Assembly: GCA_023435925.1 (NCBI GenBank)
Contig: JAEZLF010000152.1
Coordinates: forward strand, 5,589-69,588
Length of the DNA: 64,000 nt
Reading direction: 5' to 3'
DNA from: Bacillota bacterium
Lineage (GTDB): Bacteria > Bacillota > Clostridia > Acetivibrionales > DTU013
Part shown: positions 8,294 through 18,670 of the stretch, in pieces
Position numbering within the stretch: position 1 is the first letter of the stretch
How the letters are laid out: each line of letters begins with the position of its first letter
Notes under the pieces: model-generated
What the model was told of the DNA's origin: nothing
The model's input: only the letters and a program-made list of their open reading frames with translations
Database searches by the model: none
Program-made: the position numbers and the translations under genes

Positions 8294-11200
8294 GTGATCG
8301 CCTTGCACAATAATATTGATTTTTATCCTCTTACCCATCCACAAAAGGCAGTCTGGTTTACTGAAAAGCTGCACCCGGGCACATCCATCGGCAATGTCGC
8401 CGCAACTCTAAGAATGAAAGGAACAATCGATTTTTCAGTCCTTGAAAAGGCTATTAATCTGTTTATAAAAAATAATGATTCCATGCGTCTTCGTATTATT
8501 GAGATAGATGGAGAGCCGAAACAATATTTTTCAGAATATCAATATCATACATTTGAGACCATAGATTTTTCTGGTATGGATATCAACGAGTTATACAAAT
8601 GGGATTCATTACAATCAAAAACTCCGCTGGAATTGATTGATTCAGATTTATTTTACTTTGTACTGATAAAATTAAGTGATAATGATAACGGGTTTTACGT
8701 TAAATGCCACCATTTGATTGCAGATGCATGGTCCATGAATCTGCTCGGAAGCAGGATCATGCATATTTATTATGCAATGAAAGGTGAAAGTGAGATTCCT
8801 GAGTTGTATACTCCTTCTTATACTGACTTCATGATGAGTGAAGATCAATATATGGCTTCAAACAGATATATCAAGGATCAGGAATATTGGGACAAGATAT
8901 TTGAATCATTTCCCGAAAGGACTATATTAAAAGCAGATCCACCGGAGCATACCAGTATTAAAGCCAGACGGAAAACAATGATTGCACCAAAAAAACTCAC
9001 TGCCAGGATTTATCAATATTGCTATGAGAATAAAACTTCTGTTTTTTCTCTGTTTGTTGCCGCATTGTCGATGTATATCAACCGAGTGACTGATAAAAAT
9101 GATATCATTTTAGGGACTACGACTTTGAACAGGCTTAATACGAAAGAAAAGGAAACAGTCGGTATGTTCAATAACATTGTCCCAATTCGTATTGATATGA
9201 ATGACAACATGAATTTTAGAACCCTCATTGAGAATGTATCAAGGGAAGGGCTTAAACTATTAAGGCATCAGAAATACCCATATGATTATATTTTGAAATC
9301 GGTCAGGGAGAAGCATCAGATTACGGATAATATCTTTAATATTGTGTTGATTTATCAAAATACAAAGCTTGATATGGACCATATCAAAGAAGAATTTTCC
9401 TCTAGGTGGCATTTTAATGGTTATCAGGTAGATTCTCTGCATATTAGTATCAATGACAGAGAAAATGAAGGAAACCTTATTATTGACTATGACTATCAGA
9501 CAGACTTGTTCCATGCAAAAGAAATTGACTTTATTCATCAGAACATCATTAATGTTTTGTGGCATGCTTTGGACGATCCTGCGAAAACTGTCTCCAGATT
9601 GGAAATGCTCTCTGAAAAAGAGAAATGCAGAATACTACGAGAATTCAACAAGACCAAAATCATTTGCCCTGATGGGTTGGAAACTGATTCTTCGGAAGAA
9701 TATCACAAAGCAATGCTTAGAAAGATTCCAGCACAAACAAAATCCTATATTCTGGATAAAAATCTCAATCTTATGCCAATAGGAATTGCAGGGGATTTAT
9801 TTATTTCAGGAAAAAGCATATCAAATGACAGGCGAAAGGAACTGGTGTTTTTAGATGGAGCCGGCTTACCAAATCCGTATTCCGATGGTGACAGACTTTA
9901 TAGAACCGGTTATAAAGCCAGATGGTACCCGGACGGAGACATATTGTATCTGGGAAGTGTTGTGCCGGGAAACTCATTGAAGTCTGAAAGAATTTATAAT
10001 AAAAGTGAAATAGTAGTTGATATTTTATCCACTTTTACTGCTGAGCCTGTTGAAAGCTATATAAAATGGTGGGGAAGACAATTCGGATATCATTTAAAAA
10101 TAAACTTCGCAGGATACAACCAGATATTTCAGGAGCTTTTGAACCCTGAAAGCTTATTATCAAAGAATAATGACGGAATCAACGTCATTCTGATAAGGTT
10201 TGAGGATTTTATCAGATATGAAAACGGCTCTGATGAAGAAAAAATCAGTATACTGGAAAAAACACAGGAAGAGCTGAAGGACGCTTTTGGCAGTTTTGAG
10301 AGCAAAGCATCCACTGTGGTGGGAATTTTCCCACTGGCGCCTTATTTGGATATGAGTATAGTACTGCAGCAAAAAATTGAAAAGATCAGTATGGATTTCA
10401 AAAGAGCGCTTGAAAAGCATAAAAATGTATTCATTCTGGATTTTTGTGAGATGCAGGCAATATACGGTATTCATGAGGTATTCGATTCTCTTCAGGATAA
10501 AGAGGCGCATATGCCTTTTACAGAAGAATATTATGCAGCAATGGGAACTGAACTAGCGAGGAAAGTATGCGCGATTAGGAAGCAGACATTGAAGGTAATC
10601 GTACTGGATTGTGATAACACTCTGTGGAAAGGAATATGTGGAGAGCAGGGAGCTCTTGGTGTCCATATAACCGAACCTTACCGGCAGCTGCAGCAGTTTA
10701 TGCTTCAGAAATATCAGGAAGGATTTTTGCTTGCAGTTTGCAGTAAAAACAATGAGAAGGATGTTCTTGAAGTCTTTGAAAAGAACCCCGGAATGATTTT
10801 AGAGAAAAAACATTTTATTTCATGGAAAATCAACTGGAAAGAAAAAAGCATAAATATTAAAGAGATTGCAGAGGATTTAAATCTCGGCTTGGACAGCTTC
10901 ATTTTCGTGGATGATAATCCGCTGGAATGCTCCAAAATGGCGGAAAGCTGCCCTGAGGTATTAACTTTGCAGTTACCGTATGTAAATGAATACATACCAC
11001 TGTTTCTGAAACATGTTTGGGCCTTTGACAAGGTGAGGATAACCAATGAAGATATTCTAAGGAATGAGATGTATGAGGCAGAGGCAAAAAGAAAAACGCT
11101 ACAAAATGCAAATAGTACCTTTAAGCAATTTATGCACAGTCTCCATTTGAAAGTCAGCATGAGGGTTATTACAGACGATGAAATTGAAAGAGCGGCACAG

Positions 11201-14200
11201 CTGACACATCGTACAAATCAGTTTAATCTGAGCACGATCAGAAGAAGTGAAGAAGAATTGACTCTTTTATTAGAGAATAAATCCTATACAGGCTTTGTCG
11301 TTGAAGCGTCTGATAGATTTGGGGATTATGGCATCATCGGACTTGTCCTTTTGTATGATGACCGGGAAAAGATCTTCATTGATACATTCCTGATGAGCTG
11401 CAGAATATTTGGCAGAAATGTGGAAAATGTTATGCTCGCAGGAATCGGAAGATTTGCCCGCGAGAGAAAACGAGAGAGGATAGAGGCCGCTTTTGTATCA
11501 ACGGAAAAAAATAAACCCACTTATGAATTTATTATTCTCAATAAGTGGGAACTTCTGATGGAAGCGGATAAGCGGCAGTTGTACTGCATAAAAACAGAAG
11601 AGCTGAAAAAGAAAGTAGAGGGTGTTGAGTTTTATTATAATAAGAAGTTTGCAGATGCTAATGCAGACGGATTATATAAAGGAAATGTGTGTTTGGAACA
11701 CAAGGCAGGAGAGACCGCAAAGACTCATAGCAGCAGCTTCCTGCCGCAATATGATCCGGATTACAATGTGGAATCATATGAGCATATACGTCACAAGGAA
11801 TATATCCTGCCACTCAAATATTTGACGGCAGAAAAACTACTGCAAATTTCTTACGGGTATTGTTCTGATGCGACTTTGTCCGGATTTAATACTACTGAAA
11901 ATGGGAAACAGGAAAAACTCCTGCACATTTGGAAAAGGTTATTAAAAACAGACAAGATTGAGATAGAGGATGATTTTTTTAAGCTTGGTGGTGACTCGTT
12001 GAGTGCTGTTATTCTCCTATCAAACATCAGGAAAGAATTTGGCGTAGAGCTGGCCTTAAAGGATGTTTTCAGATCGGGTACCATTAAAAAGCTTGCACAG
12101 ATTATTGCGGGGTCAAGCAGTAAAAAGGAGGAGCATATAGAACCCGTTGAACCCAAAGCGTATTATGATCTTTCTTCTGCACAGAAAAGAATGTATATAC
12201 TCAATAAGATGGAAGGTCATTCTACAGTATATAATGAATGTCATAGAATTCTCATTGAAGGGAAACTGGATAGAAACAAGTTGGAATCCGCTTTCCAACA
12301 ATTTGTAAACAGACATGAAATTATGAGAACCGGATTTGAGATGATTGAATCGGGACCGGTTCAAATTGTATATGACGATGTAGACTTTAAAATTCCATTT
12401 GCAAAAGTAAAGGAAGAAGACGTACTTAAGGTGACGGATGAATTCATCCAGCCCTTTGATTTACGCAAACCGCCATTAATAAGAGCATCGTTGCTGGAGG
12501 TTGCTAAGGAACGTCATATTCTTTTGTTAGATGTCCATCATATTATTATTGACGGAGCGTCTTTCGGTATATTGATTAAAGAAATTCAGGCTTTATACCG
12601 GGGCAGTGCATTGAGACCGTTGCGAATCCAATATAAGGACTTTGCAAATTGGCAAAATAAATACTTAGTGTCGAATGCAATAAAGAAGCAGGAAGAATAC
12701 TGGAAGCAACAATTTAGCGATGGAATACCGGTGCTGAATATGCCGACAGATCATCCAAGGCCCGCAGTACAAAGCTTTCATGGAAGATGGTACTATTTTA
12801 AACTGGACTCTATTCAAACGGACAGACTAAAAAGCATTTGCGGCATAACAAACACAACACTGTTTATGCTGCTTTATGCTGCTTTTAATGTTTTGTTGCA
12901 CCGATACTCCAGTCAGGAGGATATTGTTGTTGGAATTCCCGTATCCGGCAGAAATCATGAGGATGTAAAAAACATTGCAGGTATGTTTGTCAATACGCTG
13001 CCAATCAGAACGAGTCCTAAAAGTAACTGCAAATTCAGCGAGTATTTAGAGGCAGTAAAAGAAACGATATTAAAGGGACTGGAGAATCAGGATTATCAAT
13101 ATGAAAATTTGGTAGACAAACTCAGCGTACAGAGAGAGCTTAACAGAAATCCGCTGTTTGATATCCTGTTTTCGATGCAGAATACGGATATACCGGATAT
13201 TCAGCTGGATGGCCTTTCTATGAAGCAGTGTAAAGTTGATAGTCACAAATCGAAATTTGATTTATCCCTGCTGGCAGCAGAAAAAAACAATGAATTAGAA
13301 TTTGGATTGGAATATTGCACAGATCTTTTTGAAGAGTATTCTATATTACGACTAAAGGATCATTTTTTGAATATTTTGAAGGACGTGTCAGACAACCTCC
13401 AAAAACCAATATCCGAAATAGAAATATTAAGTGAAGAGGAAAAGAATAAAATCTTATATGAATTTAATAGTACACAGGCGGACTATCCCCGAGATAAGAC
13501 CATACATCAATTGTTTGAAGAACAGGCAGCAAAAACACCGGATGATATTGCTGTTGTATTTGAGAATAAGGAATTGACATACTCCAGGCTTAATACGAGA
13601 GCGAATCAACTTGCAGCATTACTCAGGGATAAAGGTGTAGAACCCGGTGTAATTGTCGGAATTATGGTGAATCGATCATTGGAATTGGTTGTCGGGATTC
13701 TTGCTATCCTAAAAGCAGGTGGAGCCTATCTACCTGTCGATCCCGGTTACCCGGAGGAACGGATCAGATATATGCTTGAGGACAGCGGTATGAAGCTGCT
13801 ACTGACCTCAACTGCTCTTAACAGGCAAGCTTCTTTTGATGATATGATCTATATAAATGAGTGTTTTTCCGGTTTTGATGATGGCGTTTCTTGTTTTAAC
13901 CTCACGAATTTGAATAAATCCAGTGATTTGCTTTATGTAGTATATACTTCTGGTTCTACAGGACAGCCTAAAGGCGTAATGCTCGAGCACAGGAACATGG
14001 CAAACTTAATACATTTTCAGTACACAAAGACAGGGATCAATTTTAAGGAAAGAACCATGCAATTTGCTTCAATGAGCTTTGATGTATGTTCGCAGGAAAT
14101 ATTTTCTGCGCTGCTTACTGGTGGCACATTGGCAATCCTGAGTGATCGGGACAAGAACCGGGTTAACAGTATGTGCGAATTTATTAGGGTACAAAATATT

Positions 14201-15229
14201 AGTGTCATGTTTTTGCCTACTGCATTTTTTAAGTTTTTGGCAAGTCAGAAGGATTATTTGGAGTTGATTCCTGAAAGTGTGAAGCATATTATTGTAGCTG
14301 GAGAAAAACTAACACTAAATGAATATGCCAAGGATTTTTTCAAAAATAGGAATATCAGCCTGCATAATCATTATGGTCCTGCCGAAACCCATGTGGTGAC
14401 AACATATTCTATGGACAAAAACACAATGCTGAAGGATATCCCTTATATAGGGAAGCCCATTTCAAACACACAAATATATATTCTGGATAGCTTGCATCAT
14501 GTACAGCCAATCGGTATTTATGGAGAAATCTATATTGCCGGTGACAACGTAGGCAGAGGATACGCGAATAAGACAGATCTGACAATGAGAAGGTTTAAAA
14601 CCATTGAGATGGGCAAAACAAAAATCAGATGTTATCAAACCGGAGACGTAGGTCGGTGGATACATGACGGTAACATAGAATTTCTCGGCAGGAATGACAA
14701 TCAGGTAAAGATAAGAGGTTACAGGGTTGAACTGGAGGAGGTAGAGAAATGCTTATTAAAGCATGCCGGAATACGGGAATGTGTTGTCATAACGAGAAAG
14801 TTTCCAAACGGAAATACTGATTTGGTGGCATATTTCACTTCGGATGAAGTAGTTGATATCGATTCATTGAAAAGCACCCTAAAAAAGCATTTGCCTATTT
14901 ATATGATTCCGAAGTATTATATGCAAGTAGAAAAAATACAGTTGACGAAGAATGGAAAGGTAAATAAGGACAATTTACCAAATCTGATAATGAGTCCTGC
15001 AAAGAATAATTACACTCCTCCTGCAAGTGAAAAAGAAAAGGAACTTCTCAAAGTTTGGCGGAGTGTACTGGGAATTGACGATCTGAGTATCGAACATAAC
15101 TTTTTTGAAAATGGCGGAGACTCGCTTTTGCTTATTAAGGTTTTATTAGAAGCAGAAAAAAAGGGATATGAAATAACAGTAAAAGATATGTACTTAAAAC
15201 CGAGTGTCAAAGAATTATGCAGATCATAA
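8294..15229 (+). CDS. non-ribosomal peptide synthetase-like megasynthase, C-(A remnant)-FkbH-like-T-C-A-T
   Basis: Motifs in order: HHLIADAWS (C1); SYILDKNLNLMPIGIAGDLFISG...YRTGYKARWYPDGD (A6-A8-like remnant); VLDCDNTLW (HAD-IIIC/FkbH-type); FFKLGGDSLS (T1); HHIIIDGASF (C2). The A domain shows LTYSRLN, YTSGSTGQPKG, NHYGPAET, GEIYIAGDNVGRGY, YQTGDVGRW and GRNDNQVKIRG. T2 is FFENGGDSLL. The start may instead be TTG 8303, behind GAGGTGA. Confidence 0.9.
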   Translation: MIALHNNIDFYPLTHPQKAVWFTEKLHPGTSIGNVAATLRMKGTIDFSVLEKAINLFIKNNDSMRLRIIEIDGEPKQYFSEYQYHTFETIDFSGMDINELYKWDSLQSKTPLELIDSDLFYFVLIKLSDNDNGFYVKCHHLIADAWSMNLLGSRIMHIYYAMKGESEIPELYTPSYTDFMMSEDQYMASNRYIKDQEYWDKIFESFPERTILKADPPEHTSIKARRKTMIAPKKLTARIYQYCYENKTSVFSLFVAALSMYINRVTDKNDIILGTTTLNRLNTKEKETVGMFNNIVPIRIDMNDNMNFRTLIENVSREGLKLLRHQKYPYDYILKSVREKHQITDNIFNIVLIYQNTKLDMDHIKEEFSSRWHFNGYQVDSLHISINDRENEGNLIIDYDYQTDLFHAKEIDFIHQNIINVLWHALDDPAKTVSRLEMLSEKEKCRILREFNKTKIICPDGLETDSSEEYHKAMLRKIPAQTKSYILDKNLNLMPIGIAGDLFISGKSISNDRRKELVFLDGAGLPNPYSDGDRLYRTGYKARWYPDGDILYLGSVVPGNSLKSERIYNKSEIVVDILSTFTAEPVESYIKWWGRQFGYHLKINFAGYNQIFQELLNPESLLSKNNDGINVILIRFEDFIRYENGSDEEKISILEKTQEELKDAFGSFESKASTVVGIFPLAPYLDMSIVLQQKIEKISMDFKRALEKHKNVFILDFCEMQAIYGIHEVFDSLQDKEAHMPFTEEYYAAMGTELARKVCAIRKQTLKVIVLDCDNTLWKGICGEQGALGVHITEPYRQLQQFMLQKYQEGFLLAVCSKNNEKDVLEVFEKNPGMILEKKHFISWKINWKEKSINIKEIAEDLNLGLDSFIFVDDNPLECSKMAESCPEVLTLQLPYVNEYIPLFLKHVWAFDKVRITNEDILRNEMYEAEAKRKTLQNANSTFKQFMHSLHLKVSMRVITDDEIERAAQLTHRTNQFNLSTIRRSEEELTLLLENKSYTGFVVEASDRFGDYGIIGLVLLYDDREKIFIDTFLMSCRIFGRNVENVMLAGIGRFARERKRERIEAAFVSTEKNKPTYEFIILNKWELLMEADKRQLYCIKTEELKKKVEGVEFYYNKKFADANADGLYKGNVCLEHKAGETAKTHSSSFLPQYDPDYNVESYEHIRHKEYILPLKYLTAEKLLQISYGYCSDATLSGFNTTENGKQEKLLHIWKRLLKTDKIEIEDDFFKLGGDSLSAVILLSNIRKEFGVELALKDVFRSGTIKKLAQIIAGSSSKKEEHIEPVEPKAYYDLSSAQKRMYILNKMEGHSTVYNECHRILIEGKLDRNKLESAFQQFVNRHEIMRTGFEMIESGPVQIVYDDVDFKIPFAKVKEEDVLKVTDEFIQPFDLRKPPLIRASLLEVAKERHILLLDVHHIIIDGASFGILIKEIQALYRGSALRPLRIQYKDFANWQNKYLVSNAIKKQEEYWKQQFSDGIPVLNMPTDHPRPAVQSFHGRWYYFKLDSIQTDRLKSICGITNTTLFMLLYAAFNVLLHRYSSQEDIVVGIPVSGRNHEDVKNIAGMFVNTLPIRTSPKSNCKFSEYLEAVKETILKGLENQDYQYENLVDKLSVQRELNRNPLFDILFSMQNTDIPDIQLDGLSMKQCKVDSHKSKFDLSLLAAEKNNELEFGLEYCTDLFEEYSILRLKDHFLNILKDVSDNLQKPISEIEILSEEEKNKILYEFNSTQADYPRDKTIHQLFEEQAAKTPDDIAVVFENKELTYSRLNTRANQLAALLRDKGVEPGVIVGIMVNRSLELVVGILAILKAGGAYLPVDPGYPEERIRYMLEDSGMKLLLTSTALNRQASFDDMIYINECFSGFDDGVSCFNLTNLNKSSDLLYVVYTSGSTGQPKGVMLEHRNMANLIHFQYTKTGINFKERTMQFASMSFDVCSQEIFSALLTGGTLAILSDRDKNRVNSMCEFIRVQNISVMFLPTAFFKFLASQKDYLELIPESVKHIIVAGEKLTLNEYAKDFFKNRNISLHNHYGPAETHVVTTYSMDKNTMLKDIPYIGKPISNTQIYILDSLHHVQPIGIYGEIYIAGDNVGRGYANKTDLTMRRFKTIEMGKTKIRCYQTGDVGRWIHDGNIEFLGRNDNQVKIRGYRVELEEVEKCLLKHAGIRECVVITRKFPNGNTDLVAYFTSDEVVDIDSLKSTLKKHLPIYMIPKYYMQVEKIQLTKNGKVNKDNLPNLIMSPAKNNYTPPASEKEKELLKVWRSVLGIDDLSIEHNFFENGGDSLLLIKVLLEAEKKGYEITVKDMYLKPSVKELCRS

Positions 15230-15247: not shown

Positions 15248-17161
15248 ATGACGAATAAAGTATATCTGATTCTGGTTTGTATTACTACCGTTTTACTTGC
15301 TTTACTGGAAGTTTACCTAAATAAAAGTGTGAAAAGTAAAAAAACGATACATGCTTTTTTTGAATATGCAATTCTAAGCATTGGCATTACAAACATTGGC
15401 TATATTTTGATGCTCACGCTGGAGATTTTTTTTCAGTATTATAATACGATTTCTTTTGTATATATCATATTTTTAGGCGCATCTTTTTTTCCTGTGTTTT
15501 TTCTTTTGTTTGGATTGGCTTTTGCAAAACGGGATTTTTCTTTTGAGAGAAAGTATTTGTTTTTATTTGTTATACCGGTGCTAACAAACATTGTTTTATG
15601 GACGAACAGCAGCCATAATCTTTTTTATAAAGAGTACCTTACAAGCTCGGAATACATATATGGACCGTATTTCCTGGTACACATTTTATGGCTATATGGG
15701 TGCGTATTGATTGGGATTGGTAAGCTCTTGTCCTTCTCTATAAAGAATGCAGGTTTCTTTTCCAAGCAGGCTTTGCTTATTATCGCAGGTACTGTACTAC
15801 CTCTCGTTCTTGATGTCGTGTGGATAATGGGAAGCTTTCTTGATATTGAATATTTGAAAATGTTTTCCCAATATGATATTACCCCGATAACTTTTACTTT
15901 TGCAATTATCTGTTATGCACTTGCAATTTTTAAGTTTGATTTTTTAAATGTCGTTCCAATTGCTCTGCAGAGAATAGTGGATATCATATCCGACGGTTTT
16001 ATTGTGATTGATGAAGATTTCAATATTATTGATTATAACGAAACATTTTTAAGTAATTTCAGTAAAATAGCGGATTTTAAGAGGAAAGATAATATCATTG
16101 ATGTATTGGTGGAAAACAATGTACCAGGCATAGATTCAGCGTTGCTCGCCGGTTACTTAAGAAAAGCAGTGGGAAATAAAGAATCTGTGCTGTTTGAAAA
16201 GCAAATAGTATCCAGTGATTTCAATAAATATTTCACAGTTGAAATAACCCCTATTTTTTCTGAAGATAAGAAGAGCTATAATAAGGAAAAGCTTGTAGAG
16301 CGCAAAGGAAAATCCAGTTTGATTGGCATTATCATCCTGCTTAAAGATATTACAGAGCATAAGATGAATCTGAAGGCATTAAAGGAAAACCAGGAAATCC
16401 TCCTCGAACAGGAGCGTCTTGCGTCGCTGGGGCAATTGATCGGTGGAATTGCACATAATCTGAAGACGCCGATCATGTCGATATCCGGAGGTATAGAGGC
16501 ACTTAGGGATCTGACATTCGAATACAGAGATTCAATTGATGATAAAAGTGTTACCGAACAGGATCACAAGGAAATCGCCAGAGAAATGATGTCCTGGTTG
16601 GACAGGATGAAGCCCTATTGCGGGTATATGTCGGATGTGATATCGGCAGTTAAGGGACAAGCTGTTCAGATGAATGCATCTGTAACAAGCAAATTTACAG
16701 TAGATGAACTCATCAAAAGGGTAGATCTGTTGATGAAACATGAACTGAAGAAATACCACTGTATTTTAAAGACTGAAATGAATATTGATAAGAGTACCGA
16801 AATCAAAGGGGAGATTACCAATCTGGTACAGGTTTTCGATAACATCATCATCAATGCCATGCAAGCATACGAAGGCGAAAATGGGTCAATTGACTTGAAA
16901 ATTACACGTAGTGGTGATAATGTTGAATTTATATTTAAAGATCAAGGGAAGGGTATTCCAAAGCAAATTGCGGATAGATTGTTTAAGGAAATGGTTACTA
17001 CGAAAGGCAAAAAAGGTACAGGACTGGGTTTATACATGTCATATTCCACCATTAAAGGCCGATTTGGCGGGAACATGTCTTTTGTATCGAAGGAAGGACA
17101 TGGAACTACCTTTTTTATATCCATACCGTGTATAGCATACAACAGACAGGAGGCAGAATAG
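15248..17161 (+). CDS. sensor histidine kinase with N-terminal polytopic (7TM-type) domain and PAS-like region
   Basis: About 7 hydrophobic helices in the first 240 aa. H-box LGQLIGGIAHNLKTPI. HATPase_c motifs (NLVQVFDNIIINAMQA, DQGKGIP, GTGLGLYMS). AGGAG RBS 18 nt after the NRPS stop. Confidence 0.85.
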   Translation: MTNKVYLILVCITTVLLALLEVYLNKSVKSKKTIHAFFEYAILSIGITNIGYILMLTLEIFFQYYNTISFVYIIFLGASFFPVFFLLFGLAFAKRDFSFERKYLFLFVIPVLTNIVLWTNSSHNLFYKEYLTSSEYIYGPYFLVHILWLYGCVLIGIGKLLSFSIKNAGFFSKQALLIIAGTVLPLVLDVVWIMGSFLDIEYLKMFSQYDITPITFTFAIICYALAIFKFDFLNVVPIALQRIVDIISDGFIVIDEDFNIIDYNETFLSNFSKIADFKRKDNIIDVLVENNVPGIDSALLAGYLRKAVGNKESVLFEKQIVSSDFNKYFTVEITPIFSEDKKSYNKEKLVERKGKSSLIGIIILLKDITEHKMNLKALKENQEILLEQERLASLGQLIGGIAHNLKTPIMSISGGIEALRDLTFEYRDSIDDKSVTEQDHKEIAREMMSWLDRMKPYCGYMSDVISAVKGQAVQMNASVTSKFTVDELIKRVDLLMKHELKKYHCILKTEMNIDKSTEIKGEITNLVQVFDNIIINAMQAYEGENGSIDLKITRSGDNVEFIFKDQGKGIPKQIADRLFKEMVTTKGKKGTGLGLYMSYSTIKGRFGGNMSFVSKEGHGTTFFISIPCIAYNRQEAE

Positions 17162-18670
17162 ATGCGGAGAAAAGCACAAGCAACCAGGTCAAACTACAGA
17201 ATCCTTGTCGTGGACGACGAGATAGGCATTATTGACTCTCTGTCCGTTGTTTTGAAGCGGAGCGGTTATGACTTTACCGGATTGGTGGATCCGCTGGAGG
17301 CTATTGAAAGAGTAAAGACGGAACATTTTGATTTGATGATTCTGGATTTTCTGATGTATCCTATTCATGGCGACAAGGTGGTGCAGACAATCCGGGAGTT
17401 TAATAGTGAATTGTACATTTTACTGCTAACAGGACATAAGGATCTGGCACCGCCTCTTGAAACTATCAAGGCTCTGGATATTCAGGGTTATTGCGAAAAG
17501 AGTGACCGATTTGACCAGCTGTTATTACTTGTAGAATCGGGAATCAAATCCATCTCGCAGATGCGGACTATCAAGAAATTCAGAGACGGTCTTAACAAAA
17601 TACTAGAAGCTGTGCCGAAGATTTATTCGCTCCAGCCTATCGATTCCATATTGCAGGATATACTGTCAGAAATCATGCCTTTGGTGGATAGTGAGAACGC
17701 GTTTATTTTAGTTGATGATACTACGGATATTATTGCCGGTAACAAAAGTATATTTAAAGGTATTGGTAAGTATAAGGCGGAGATTGACTGTTTTATGGAG
17801 ATGCTGAGCCCGAATCTCATGGAACACATCGGATATTCAAGGATATCCCGGCAGGTGGTTAAGCTGGAACAGAGTGTGATATTACCGTTGATCAACGAAT
17901 TTCATCAGACCATTGGCGTTATATTTGTTGAAAGTACAAATATTGAGGATGGCCTGAAGCTGTTGGAGATCTACTCGAATCAGGCGGCATCTTCAATTAA
18001 CAATGCCTTTCTTCATTCACTGGTCAATATGAAAAATGATGAACTCAATAAAACATATGACCTGCTCAAACTTAGATATATGGATACAATTGAAGCATTA
18101 AGGCAGGCCGTTGATGCAAAGGATATTTATACCAGAGGCCATTCTGACCGCGTTGCCTATTATGCCGTCAGAATCGGTGAAGCTGCAGGAATGACAGCAC
18201 ACGAGCTTGAAACTCTCCGAATCAGCGGTGTCTTTCATGATATCGGGAAGATTGGAACAGCGGACGACATTTTACTGAAAACCGACAGGCTTGACGACAG
18301 GGAGCTATTGGAGATACAAAAGCATCCAATTAAGGGAGCTCGAATTTTATCGGCGGTCTCCATGTTTAAGGATGTGGTTCCAATAGTGAAATGTCACCAT
18401 GAAAGAGTGGATGGAACGGGTTACCCGGATGGTTTAAAAAAAGATGAAATACCATTGTCGGCAAGAATTATATCAGTGTCCGATGCATTTGATGCCATGA
18501 TGTCCGACCGGCTTTACCGATCGAAGCTAAATCTTGAAGAAGCGAGGCAGCAGTTGATTAACGGCTCAGGCACACAATTCGATGAGGACATTGTCTCGAT
18601 ATTCATAAAGCTCATCGATGGCACAGGCTTTGGCGAAATGCTGAAGGAAACTGCTGCCACATATGAGTAA
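17162..18670 (+). CDS. response regulator with HD-GYP (c-di-GMP phosphodiesterase-type) output domain
   Basis: REC domain (ILVVDDE, DLMILDFLM), a central GAF-like spacer, and HD-GYP motifs HSDRVAYY, FHDIGKIG, HHERVDGTGYPDGL. The ATG directly abuts the kinase stop codon. Confidence 0.85.
   Translation: MRRKAQATRSNYRILVVDDEIGIIDSLSVVLKRSGYDFTGLVDPLEAIERVKTEHFDLMILDFLMYPIHGDKVVQTIREFNSELYILLLTGHKDLAPPLETIKALDIQGYCEKSDRFDQLLLLVESGIKSISQMRTIKKFRDGLNKILEAVPKIYSLQPIDSILQDILSEIMPLVDSENAFILVDDTTDIIAGNKSIFKGIGKYKAEIDCFMEMLSPNLMEHIGYSRISRQVVKLEQSVILPLINEFHQTIGVIFVESTNIEDGLKLLEIYSNQAASSINNAFLHSLVNMKNDELNKTYDLLKLRYMDTIEALRQAVDAKDIYTRGHSDRVAYYAVRIGEAAGMTAHELETLRISGVFHDIGKIGTADDILLKTDRLDDRELLEIQKHPIKGARILSAVSMFKDVVPIVKCHHERVDGTGYPDGLKKDEIPLSARIISVSDAFDAMMSDRLYRSKLNLEEARQQLINGSGTQFDEDIVSIFIKLIDGTGFGEMLKETAATYE

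Follow-up and report, generated by a model that had tools for sequence, protein, structure and literature searches.

In the biosynthesis of vioprolide, cystomanamide and corramycin, glycerate is loaded by modules of non-ribosomal peptide synthetases (NRPSs) in which a condensation (C) domain is followed by an FkbH domain and a carrier (T) domain (PMC8949500, PMC10099666). In this study, we analyzed a module of similar layout in a 64,000-nucleotide stretch of DNA from a Bacillota bacterium (contig JAEZLF010000152.1 of assembly GCA_023435925.1, positions 5,589 to 69,588; this whole stretch is called the window), in which a single, uninterrupted 6.9-kb open reading frame (ORF; positions 8294-15229, forward strand) encodes an NRPS of 2311 amino acids (aa). 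The element in question is a short segment of this protein, located between its first condensation domain (C1) and an FkbH unit, that is homologous to part of an adenylation (A) domain and will be called the stub. With the stub included, the domain order from the ORF translation and from Pfam and NCBIfam matches is C1-stub-FkbH-T-C2-A-T. Like the described glycerate modules (FAAL-ACP-C-FkbH/HAD-T, where ACP is an acyl carrier protein), the window protein has a C domain, an FkbH/HAD unit in the place of the A domain, and then a carrier. Unlike vioprolide-type modules, it has no FAAL-ACP, either in the protein or elsewhere in the window, and C1 stands at the very N-terminus; and whereas those modules are not described as having an A-domain stub, the window NRPS carries one between C and FkbH. 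The hosts differ as well, the characterized vioprolide-type ones being myxobacterial and that of the window an anaerobic member of the Bacillota. No description of a stub from the large core subdomain of an A domain (Acore) between C and FkbH was found in the open-access literature that we searched.

Other A-derived elements offer further points of comparison. Keto-acid-activating A-KR modules (e.g. StsA, 6ULW) contain a pseudo-Asub, which is A-like, non-catalytic and conserved, apparently for structural reasons (PMC10510592), and the window stub is likewise a non-catalytic A-like element that is conserved in a module subtype. However, the pseudo-Asub of StsA mimics the small subdomain (Asub) beside a working A domain, whereas the stub comes from the large core, in a module without a working A domain. 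In interrupted A domains (e.g. TioS, 5WMM), M, KR or Ox domains are embedded in Asub (PMC10510592), and the window module resembles them in having a foreign domain fused within an A domain near motif A8. Interrupted A domains nevertheless keep all ten motifs and their activity, while the window module lacks A1-A5 and A8-A10 and has nothing A-like after FkbH. With most of the motifs missing, the window module is not an interrupted A domain, nor is the stub, being derived from the core, a pseudo-Asub. The same A6-A8 segment is present in a mini-construct of FscH (6EBY chain B), but that piece was artificially excised from an active, MbtH-dependent A domain. Serine-type C1-A-T(-C-A-T) synthetases of uncultured Clostridia (L010, L011, L013, L014, L018, L020 and P0292; handles in L and P are our own labels for related sequences) have starter C1 domains that are 45-55% identical to that of the window, and share its C-A linker, its RW[YF]PxGDI signature and a downstream seven-transmembrane (7TM) kinase, with an HD-GYP regulator in several; what sets them apart is that they keep a complete A domain with a serine-type pocket and have no FkbH.

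From the comparisons reported here, we consider it likely that the stub has been kept as a non-catalytic pseudo-Acore scaffold through a natural exchange of a serine loader for a glycerate loader.

A conserved, catalytically dead adenylation-domain stub

A first-pass annotation of this DNA, made by reading the sequence, had marked positions 9735-9965 as a vestigial A-domain fragment, and the peptide that it named (QTKSYILD...ILYLGS) corresponds to aa 481-555, encoded at positions 9734-9958. This segment is homologous to the A6-A7 part of NRPS A domains, as judged by several kinds of alignment. It matches the module-2 A domain of its own protein at 30% identity over 97 columns (BLASTP, E 2e-9), with a Smith-Waterman score of 93 compared with 29.8 +/- 4.6 for shuffled sequences (n=1000; z 13.9), and scores 205 (z 38) against the A domain of a relative (L010). 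Taken alone, the stub matches positions 300-376 of the 409 positions of TIGR01733 with an E value of 8.5e-10, and at 38 bits, compared with a family cutoff of 317, this partial match is to be read as homology to A domains and not as full family membership. The comparison with AMP-binding profiles that the annotation had proposed thus came out positive for TIGR01733 and negative for PF00501, which gave no score on the isolated fragment, as expected for a piece that spans just ~75 of 384 profile positions. A phmmer search of the PDB matched the stub to ~45 distinct solved NRPS A-domain sequences (e.g. LgrA 507-586 and PheA, 1amu, 348-440), and an exhaustive phmmer search with the fragment returned 35,602 proteins at E<=0.001, the best 150 of which, ranked by summed score, are giant multi-A-domain synthetases. 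A word-indexed homology search with a 162-aa fragment as sole query, to which such an index seems poorly suited, gave 25 candidates and no hits. As the sequence entropy of the stub is ordinary (3.83 bits, with a protein mean of 3.96), the similarity does not stem from low complexity, an explanation that the annotation had listed as capable of overturning its claim.

The region between C1 and FkbH (aa 441-575) is left unassigned by Pfam and NCBIfam, and no A_N similarity was found in it. Alignments divide it into five parts, all on the forward strand. First come the C-A linker (LSEKEKCRILREFNKTKIICP) and what is left, in degraded form, of the N-terminal helix of the A domain (aa 441-482, positions 9614-9739), and alignments to relatives place the left deletion junction within them. 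Block A of the stub (KSYILDKNLNLMPIGIAGDLFISGK, aa 483-507, positions 9740-9814) is the strand pair that precedes motif A6, and the G(V/L)ARGY half of A6 is replaced by a variable loop ending in a conserved NPY (aa 508-531, positions 9815-9886). Block B (GDRLYRTGYKARWYPDGDILYLG, aa 532-554, positions 9887-9955) is the A7 hairpin, with the catalytic Asp changed to Tyr540, and a variable linker (aa 555-574, positions 9956-10015) takes the place of motif A8, the right junction being the hinge between Acore and Asub. The annotation was accurate with regard to the lost motifs: A1-A5, which hold the P-loop (A3) and the substrate pocket (A4-A5), are missing, YRTGD of A7 reads YRTGY, and GRxDxQVKIRG of A8 is gone. 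The ARGY part of A6 is lost too. Across the stub family, the position of the A7 Asp is taken by Y, C, H, I, F or N. The whole of Asub, with the A10 Lys, is missing as well, and no Asub-like sequence was found between FkbH and T1. Judged by these losses in its sequence, the stub cannot adenylate and is catalytically dead. A stretch between FkbH and T1 (aa 1063-1209) was considered as a degenerate Asub and rejected, on account of its lack of A-domain hits and its near-neutral evolution.

At least 14 proteins share the C1-stub-FkbH-T arrangement with identical junctions (the window protein, P0001, L001b, P0271, P0272, L002-L009 and L031). They were recovered in genome and metagenome scans, with the FkbH part, the C1 part and a three-sequence junction alignment as queries, and their individual domains are only ~50-65% identical to those of the window protein. 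L002-L009 come from metagenome-assembled genomes (MAGs), mostly of Bacillota or Clostridia, and L001b is a 1925-aa paralogue on the contig of P0001 (L001 887-6664). In L002, L003 and L005, mutS2 (74-84% identical) lies immediately upstream of the NRPS, as in the window, which identifies these as syntenic orthologues of the window gene. The C-A linker of the family reads LSEKEKxxILxEFN..IIYP, and the remnant of the A-domain N-terminal helix (TIxQLFEEQ) is still legible, e.g. as NTIHQLTEEQ in L008 and as DTLRSLFEGQA in L001b. The consensus of block A is K.YILDKNLNLMPIGIAGELYIS and that of block B is LYKTG-x-xARW[YF]P[DE]GDIxYLG; the inner loop is variable and ends in NPY/F, and the hinge linker, also variable and rich in K and E in most members, leads into FkbH_N. 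Since the window and most of its relatives are metagenome-derived, and since P0272 and P0013, on one contig, resemble a split gene, one might suspect that a frameshifted or chimeric contig has produced a false truncated A domain; but the window ORF is uninterrupted over its 6.9 kb, the junctions are identical in 14 independently assembled sequences, and no stop codons occur in the 11 that were translated, so that we give such an artefact of assembly or annotation almost no credence.

Some members of the family vary in other ways. Five of them (L005, L007, L008, L009 and L001b) have ~200-300 extra residues between FkbH and T1, the T domain starting at ~aa 1413-1439 as compared with ~1200, and in L001b the extra region is annotated as Glyoxalase_4 (PF13669), as it is in the FkbH proteins P0013 and P0015; an FkbH-VOC-T arrangement may modify the glyceryl unit. 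Stub-bearing L006 is in a MAG labeled Ignavibacteriales, and L007 and L009 are in a MAG labeled Deltaproteobacteria, from one sequencing project. A related locus, L024, is also in an Ignavibacteriales-labeled MAG, and one non-Bacillota MAG holds two paralogous copies. These occurrences outside the Bacillota reflect either horizontal transfer or binning error.

Among the best 120 FkbH homologues, P0001 is the sole C-FkbH protein with a stub. Two others, P0003 and P0005, have a ~105-residue unrelated insert (residues ~447-555) between C and FkbH, with a C domain that is 38% identical to C1. This insert detectably resembles neither A domains nor any PDB entry (NCBIfam; phmmer against the PDB), and the suspicion by eye that it is an A9-like (LPxYM) remnant was dropped, as neither search supported it. 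An independent rearrangement with the complementary remnant is seen in just one of the same 120 homologues, P0100 (868 aa, metagenome), which reads FkbH-(Asub-like piece)-T, with the piece at residues ~615-735; its A9 motif LPRFMAP is kept, its A10 motif reads NGE, not NGK, and the catalytic Lys is thereby lost, FkbH having replaced the A core and left a pseudo-Asub.

To assess selection on the stub, the window gene was aligned codon by codon with four close relatives, among them the three syntenic orthologues, and several pairs from a second subclade were compared as well. Because synonymous sites are saturated (synonymous differences per site, pS, 0.7-1.1), we relied on nonsynonymous differences per site (pN) and took the linkers of the same protein as internal controls. 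Between the window gene and the four close relatives, pN is 0.21-0.23 in C1, 0.22-0.28 in FkbH_N and 0.20-0.27 in HAD, and the stub blocks fall within or below this range, at 0.14-0.21 in block A and 0.10-0.25 in block B. Values are 0.51-0.69 in the N-helix remnant (aa 460-482), 0.43-0.53 in the inner loop (aa 508-531), 0.50-0.64 in the hinge linker (aa 555-574) and 0.50-0.66 in the post-FkbH linker; in these four linker-like regions omega, the ratio of nonsynonymous to synonymous change, is ~0.3-2.5 and mostly near 1, where computable. The contrast is equally plain in amino acid identity to orthologues, which is 72-88% in block A and 65-83% in block B, compared with 21-25% in the inner loop, and which drops to 7-33% in the linkers adjoining the blocks. 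It recurs in almost every pair, the sole exception being block A in one recently diverged paralogue pair. These comparisons show that blocks A and B are under purifying selection as strong as that on the catalytic domains, with the linkers evolving near neutrally.

The annotation had regarded the segment as a fossil, or the scar of a domain swap, and it could accordingly be seen as gradually decaying junk that the protein tolerates as a spacer. All catalytic determinants are indeed gone (A1-A5 absent, the A7 Asp variable, A8 lost), and aa 460-482, 508-531 and 555-574 evolve almost neutrally. Blocks A and B, however, hold 65-88% identity at a catalytic-domain level of pN, their conservation extends to 14 proteins from different MAGs, and the piece is predicted by structural modeling to fold with high confidence; a rescue of the idea by recent gene conversion clashes with the saturated synonymous sites. 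With the same boundaries in at least 14 proteins, and with the core blocks under purifying selection while the linkers are randomized, the terms fossil and scar had to be given up, and a neutral scar is very unlikely.

Descent from a C1-A-T synthetase and the change of loader

Relatives that retain a full A domain at the position of the stub, which the annotation had suggested looking for, do exist, and comprise C1-A-T proteins from several loci and scans (L010, L011, L013, L014, L017, L018, L020 and P0273-P0300). Their C1 domains are 42-55% identical to that of the window, as compared with just 21-25% for C2-type domains. In a neighbor-joining tree of 58 C domains, in which 13 members of the stub family were placed and L031 was left out, the stub-bearing C1 domains form one clade (bootstrap 89/100) that is nested inside the C1-A-T proteins. 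The stub itself is 41-54% identical to A6-A8 of the full A domains in L010-L020, as against 30-40% for the module-2 A domains of relatives, and shares with the C1-linked A domains the RW[YF]PxGDI signature, which in generic A domains reads RWLPDGNIE. These sequence relationships show that the stub is derived from the A domain that an ancestral C1-A-T(-C-A-T) synthetase, in a Clostridia-type lineage, had at this position. Since the 13 tree-placed members form one clade, the exchange happened once, before the radiation of that clade, and the stub-FkbH arrangement is thus shown to have a single origin.

Alignment across the junctions indicates what was removed. Similarity to the sister A domains extends through the linker and 15-20 residues into the A domain, and then resumes at K.YILD; the ~310 residues in between, which start ahead of A1 and run past A5 as far as the PIGKPI loop, are missing. 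At the other end, it stops exactly between YLG and R-xD, in the GRxD of A8. This is the hinge between Acore and Asub, as defined in PMC11253843. FkbH is joined downstream of the retained core piece at this hinge, in the place of Asub, and possibly of Asub together with T. The FkbH unit begins at the natural N-terminus of free-standing FkbH proteins, and the similarity of T1 to ancestral and to FkbH-linked carriers overlaps (27-41% vs 30-43%). The ancestral C-A-T module that the annotation had postulated is therefore upheld, by the monophyly of the stub-bearing C1 domains within the C1-A-T proteins and by the closest matches of the stub, which are found there too; its proposal that FkbH replaced the A core is not, as FkbH occupies the place of Asub.

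The pocket residues of the related A domains were read by alignment to GrsA, the sequence of which agreed with 1amu at every residue. DVWHFSL[IV]DK is the code of the nearest C1-A-T relatives (L010, L011, L013, L014, L018, L020, and also P0292), and some more distant ones (P0273, P0275, P0276 and P0280) have other codes. In the PDB, the pocket segment of L010 is best matched by EntF, Txo1, Txo2 and FscH, all of which are listed as serine-activating (PMC11253843). As the pockets of the nearest relatives are of the serine type, serine was most likely replaced by glycerate, its alpha-hydroxy analogue, and the building block at position 1 was most likely switched between two chemically similar units, with glycerate assigned by analogy to characterized FkbH modules. 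The exchange of loading domains that the annotation had suspected is thus kept, in the more specific form of a serine-to-glycerate loader swap. A motif alignment of C1 revealed no fixed differences between the stub clade and its relatives that would mark an amide-to-ester switch.

Predicted fold and candidate roles of the stub

In an AlphaFold2 (AF2) model of aa 455-575, the strands of both stub blocks have a predicted local distance difference test score (pLDDT) >90. The 50 best Foldseek matches of the stub model in the PDB are all NRPS A domains, over 72-99 columns. One structure, 6eby_B, matches the stub both by fold (target TM-score, TMt, 0.76) and by sequence (E 7.7e-7); it is a 77-residue construct of the same region of serine-activating FscH, crystallized with an MbtH-like protein, which indicates that an A6-A8 piece can exist as an independent unit. 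A model of C1 together with the stub (aa 1-580) has strands at 483-487 and 499-505 in block A and at 534-544 and 550-555 in block B, and a pLDDT of <50 in the hinge linker (aa 555-574). It was compared with the C-A didomains of Txo2 (6p1j), Txo1, LgrA, TycB, SrfA-C and EntF, giving query TM-scores (TMq) of 0.72-0.79 over ~870 columns, as against 0.60-0.68 for C-only targets. A C-Acore platform is conserved in NRPS modules (PMC10510592), and the higher didomain scores suggest that the stub is modeled roughly where the A6-A8 piece sits on that platform. On the basis of these models, the stub is predicted to keep its native A-domain fold.

A folded surface of this type might also serve for docking, i.e. 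the stub could bind another protein, such as one of the MbtH-like type or an enzyme acting in trans, or a second copy of the synthetase in a dimer, rather than act as a scaffold for C1. The region of FscH that matches the stub, a ~77-residue 'interface forming region', was crystallized bound to the MbtH-like FscK (6eby_B), and C-A platforms can mediate dimerization, as in FmoA3 (PMC10510592). A six-frame motif scan of the 64-kb window, which is a weak test, nevertheless gave no MbtH-like signature, and the neighbors of the NRPS gene are housekeeping genes, a kinase and a regulator, with this two-component pair as the sole conserved adjacent partner, and we therefore think docking unlikely. In intact A domains, which belong to the ANL enzymes, A6-A7 contribute to the nucleotide site, and this is the only point, an indirect one, in favor of a residual pocket in which the stub would bind a nucleotide or a substrate-like ligand and thereby gate FkbH or C1. 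As the P-loop (A3), A4-A5, the ribose-holding Asp of A7, the A8 hinge and the A10 Lys have each been lost or mutated, and as ~75 residues are too few to form a pocket, we find this extremely improbable.

The explanation that we favor, a pseudo-Acore scaffold retained through a serine-to-glycerate exchange, can be set out step by step. In an ancestral C1-A-T(-C-A-T) synthetase, a complete FkbH loader was joined at the GRxD of A8, and a separate, clean internal deletion of ~310 residues removed A1-A5; either the fusion or the excision could have come first. By analogy with characterized C-FkbH-T modules, FkbH would then load a glyceryl unit from a phosphoglycerate donor onto T1, where the starter-type C1 would acylate it, and C2 would join the acyl-glyceryl unit to the residue activated by the A domain of module 2. 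Conservation and the structural models suggest that the stub, as a folded pseudo-Acore scaffold, would occupy the C1 partner surface on the C-Acore platform, and that it would fix the point at which the FkbH-T arm takes off from the platform. Having co-evolved with an A domain, C1 may rely on the stub for its folding or geometry, and such a dependence of this particular C1 would explain why short linkers suffice in independent C-FkbH modules. The stub would on this account be a selected pseudo-domain, in which C1 stayed dependent on its old partner surface, and a minimal part of Acore that folds autonomously was entrenched as its scaffold; this further step we propose tentatively, holding it slightly short of an even call.

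Several observations weigh against the favored explanation. Independent C-FkbH fusions (P0002, P0015, P0021, P0095 and P0105) have linkers of ~3-25 residues, so a stub is not generally required, and a requirement for it would be specific to this lineage, through entrenchment of the contact between C1 and Acore, and not general to FkbH modules. An intermediate with a full Acore followed by FkbH was not among the matches listed in the genome and metagenome scans. The selection test uses saturated synonymous sites and blocks of 23-25 codons, which makes its figures rough. In the model of aa 1-580, the pLDDT of the stub is just 65-82 and the overall root-mean-square deviation from the didomains is 7-9 Å (6.1 Å for EntF), and the placement of the stub on C1 by AF2 may reflect didomains learned in training.

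The synthetase, its genomic setting and implications

All domains of the synthetase are encoded on the forward strand. C1 (aa 1-440, positions 8294-9613; PF00668) is a starter-type condensation domain by its N-terminal position, its intact HHLIADAWS motif and its fold, the best single-domain Foldseek targets being the starter C domains CDA-C1 (4jn5) and RzmA (7c1l, C8-CoA), with a TMt of 0.85-0.90; its pLDDT is >90 in the AF2 model of aa 1-580. The complete FkbH unit (aa 575-1120, positions 10016-11653) comprises FkbH_N (aa 590-743, a PF21211 match) and an HAD-IIIC phosphatase/glyceryl-transferase core with a DCDNTLW motif, and has 2593 homologues in a homology search. Its FkbH/HAD part (aa 765-1079) matches TIGR01686 at 285.7 bits, well above the cutoff of 146.65, and occupies the position of an A domain, as in a C-FkbH-T layout. 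Downstream, a variable post-FkbH linker (aa 1121-1205) and the carrier domain T1 (aa 1206-1275, with a PF00550 match at aa 1207-1270) extend over positions 11654-12118. Module 2 (positions 12164-15223) consists of C2 (aa 1291-1721), an intact A domain (aa 1741-2222) and T2 (aa 2240-2310). By alignment to GrsA, this A domain has the 10-residue code DVQFIAHV-K, which we take to be proline-like. The protein ends in a T domain, and Pfam and NCBIfam detect no thioesterase or reductase domain and no terminal C domain in it.

Directly downstream of the NRPS gene and on the same strand, Pfam identifies a HisKA_7TM histidine kinase (positions 15248-17161) and a response regulator with an HD-GYP domain (positions 17162-18670). 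The same kinase (33-52% identity, in most cases over nearly the full length if the locus extends far enough) directly follows a C1-type NRPS in 16 related loci, listed as L001 (two copies), L006-L008, L010, L011, L013, L014, L018, L020, L022-L025 and L028, and this linkage holds whether the NRPS has a stub or a full Ser-type A domain. Four or five of these loci have the HD-GYP regulator at 63-69% identity. The NRPS, as a small acyl-peptide synthetase, the 7TM sensor and the cyclic di-GMP output may form a conserved three-gene cassette, possibly a signaling system, and our open-access search found no literature on a cassette of an NRPS and a 7TM kinase. Upstream of the NRPS are mutS2, genes for a DnaJ-TPR protein and a DUF5685 protein, and others; nearby genes such as those for an Fe-only hydrogenase, mutS2, typA and mltG place the locus in the genome of an anaerobic member of the Bacillota. 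The G+C content is 0.35-0.39 in the NRPS gene, compared with 0.43-0.46 in the flanking housekeeping genes and ~0.40 in the kinase-regulator stretch. The NRPS gene lies between mutS2 and the kinase, and in the same place in L002, L003 and L005, which, together with the low G+C content, suggests that an ancestor of these organisms took up the whole cassette by horizontal transfer. Among the ~20 larger ORFs scanned, all between 1 and 36 kb, neither a stand-alone alpha/beta thioesterase nor a phosphopantetheinyl transferase was seen, and the only thioesterase-like gene encodes a hot-dog 4HBT protein (positions 2485-2901).

For the engineering of NRPSs, in which the choice of cut sites for the exchange of loading domains is still hard, this clade records a natural and successful exchange with a non-homologous hydroxy-acid loader. 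It suggests two testable design rules, namely that the A8 hinge is usable as a fusion point, and that the A6-A7 piece may need to be kept in order to satisfy the upstream C domain. If the stub is indeed a selected pseudo-domain, the locus would be a natural blueprint for swaps to foreign loaders (cut at the A8 hinge, keep A6-A7), and a clear case of evolutionary entrenchment within a megasynthase. For the family itself, the stub adds a second kind of A-derived pseudo-domain beside the known pseudo-Asub, and the exchange predicts a route from an amide-linked acyl-serine to an ester-linked acyl-glycerate product family.

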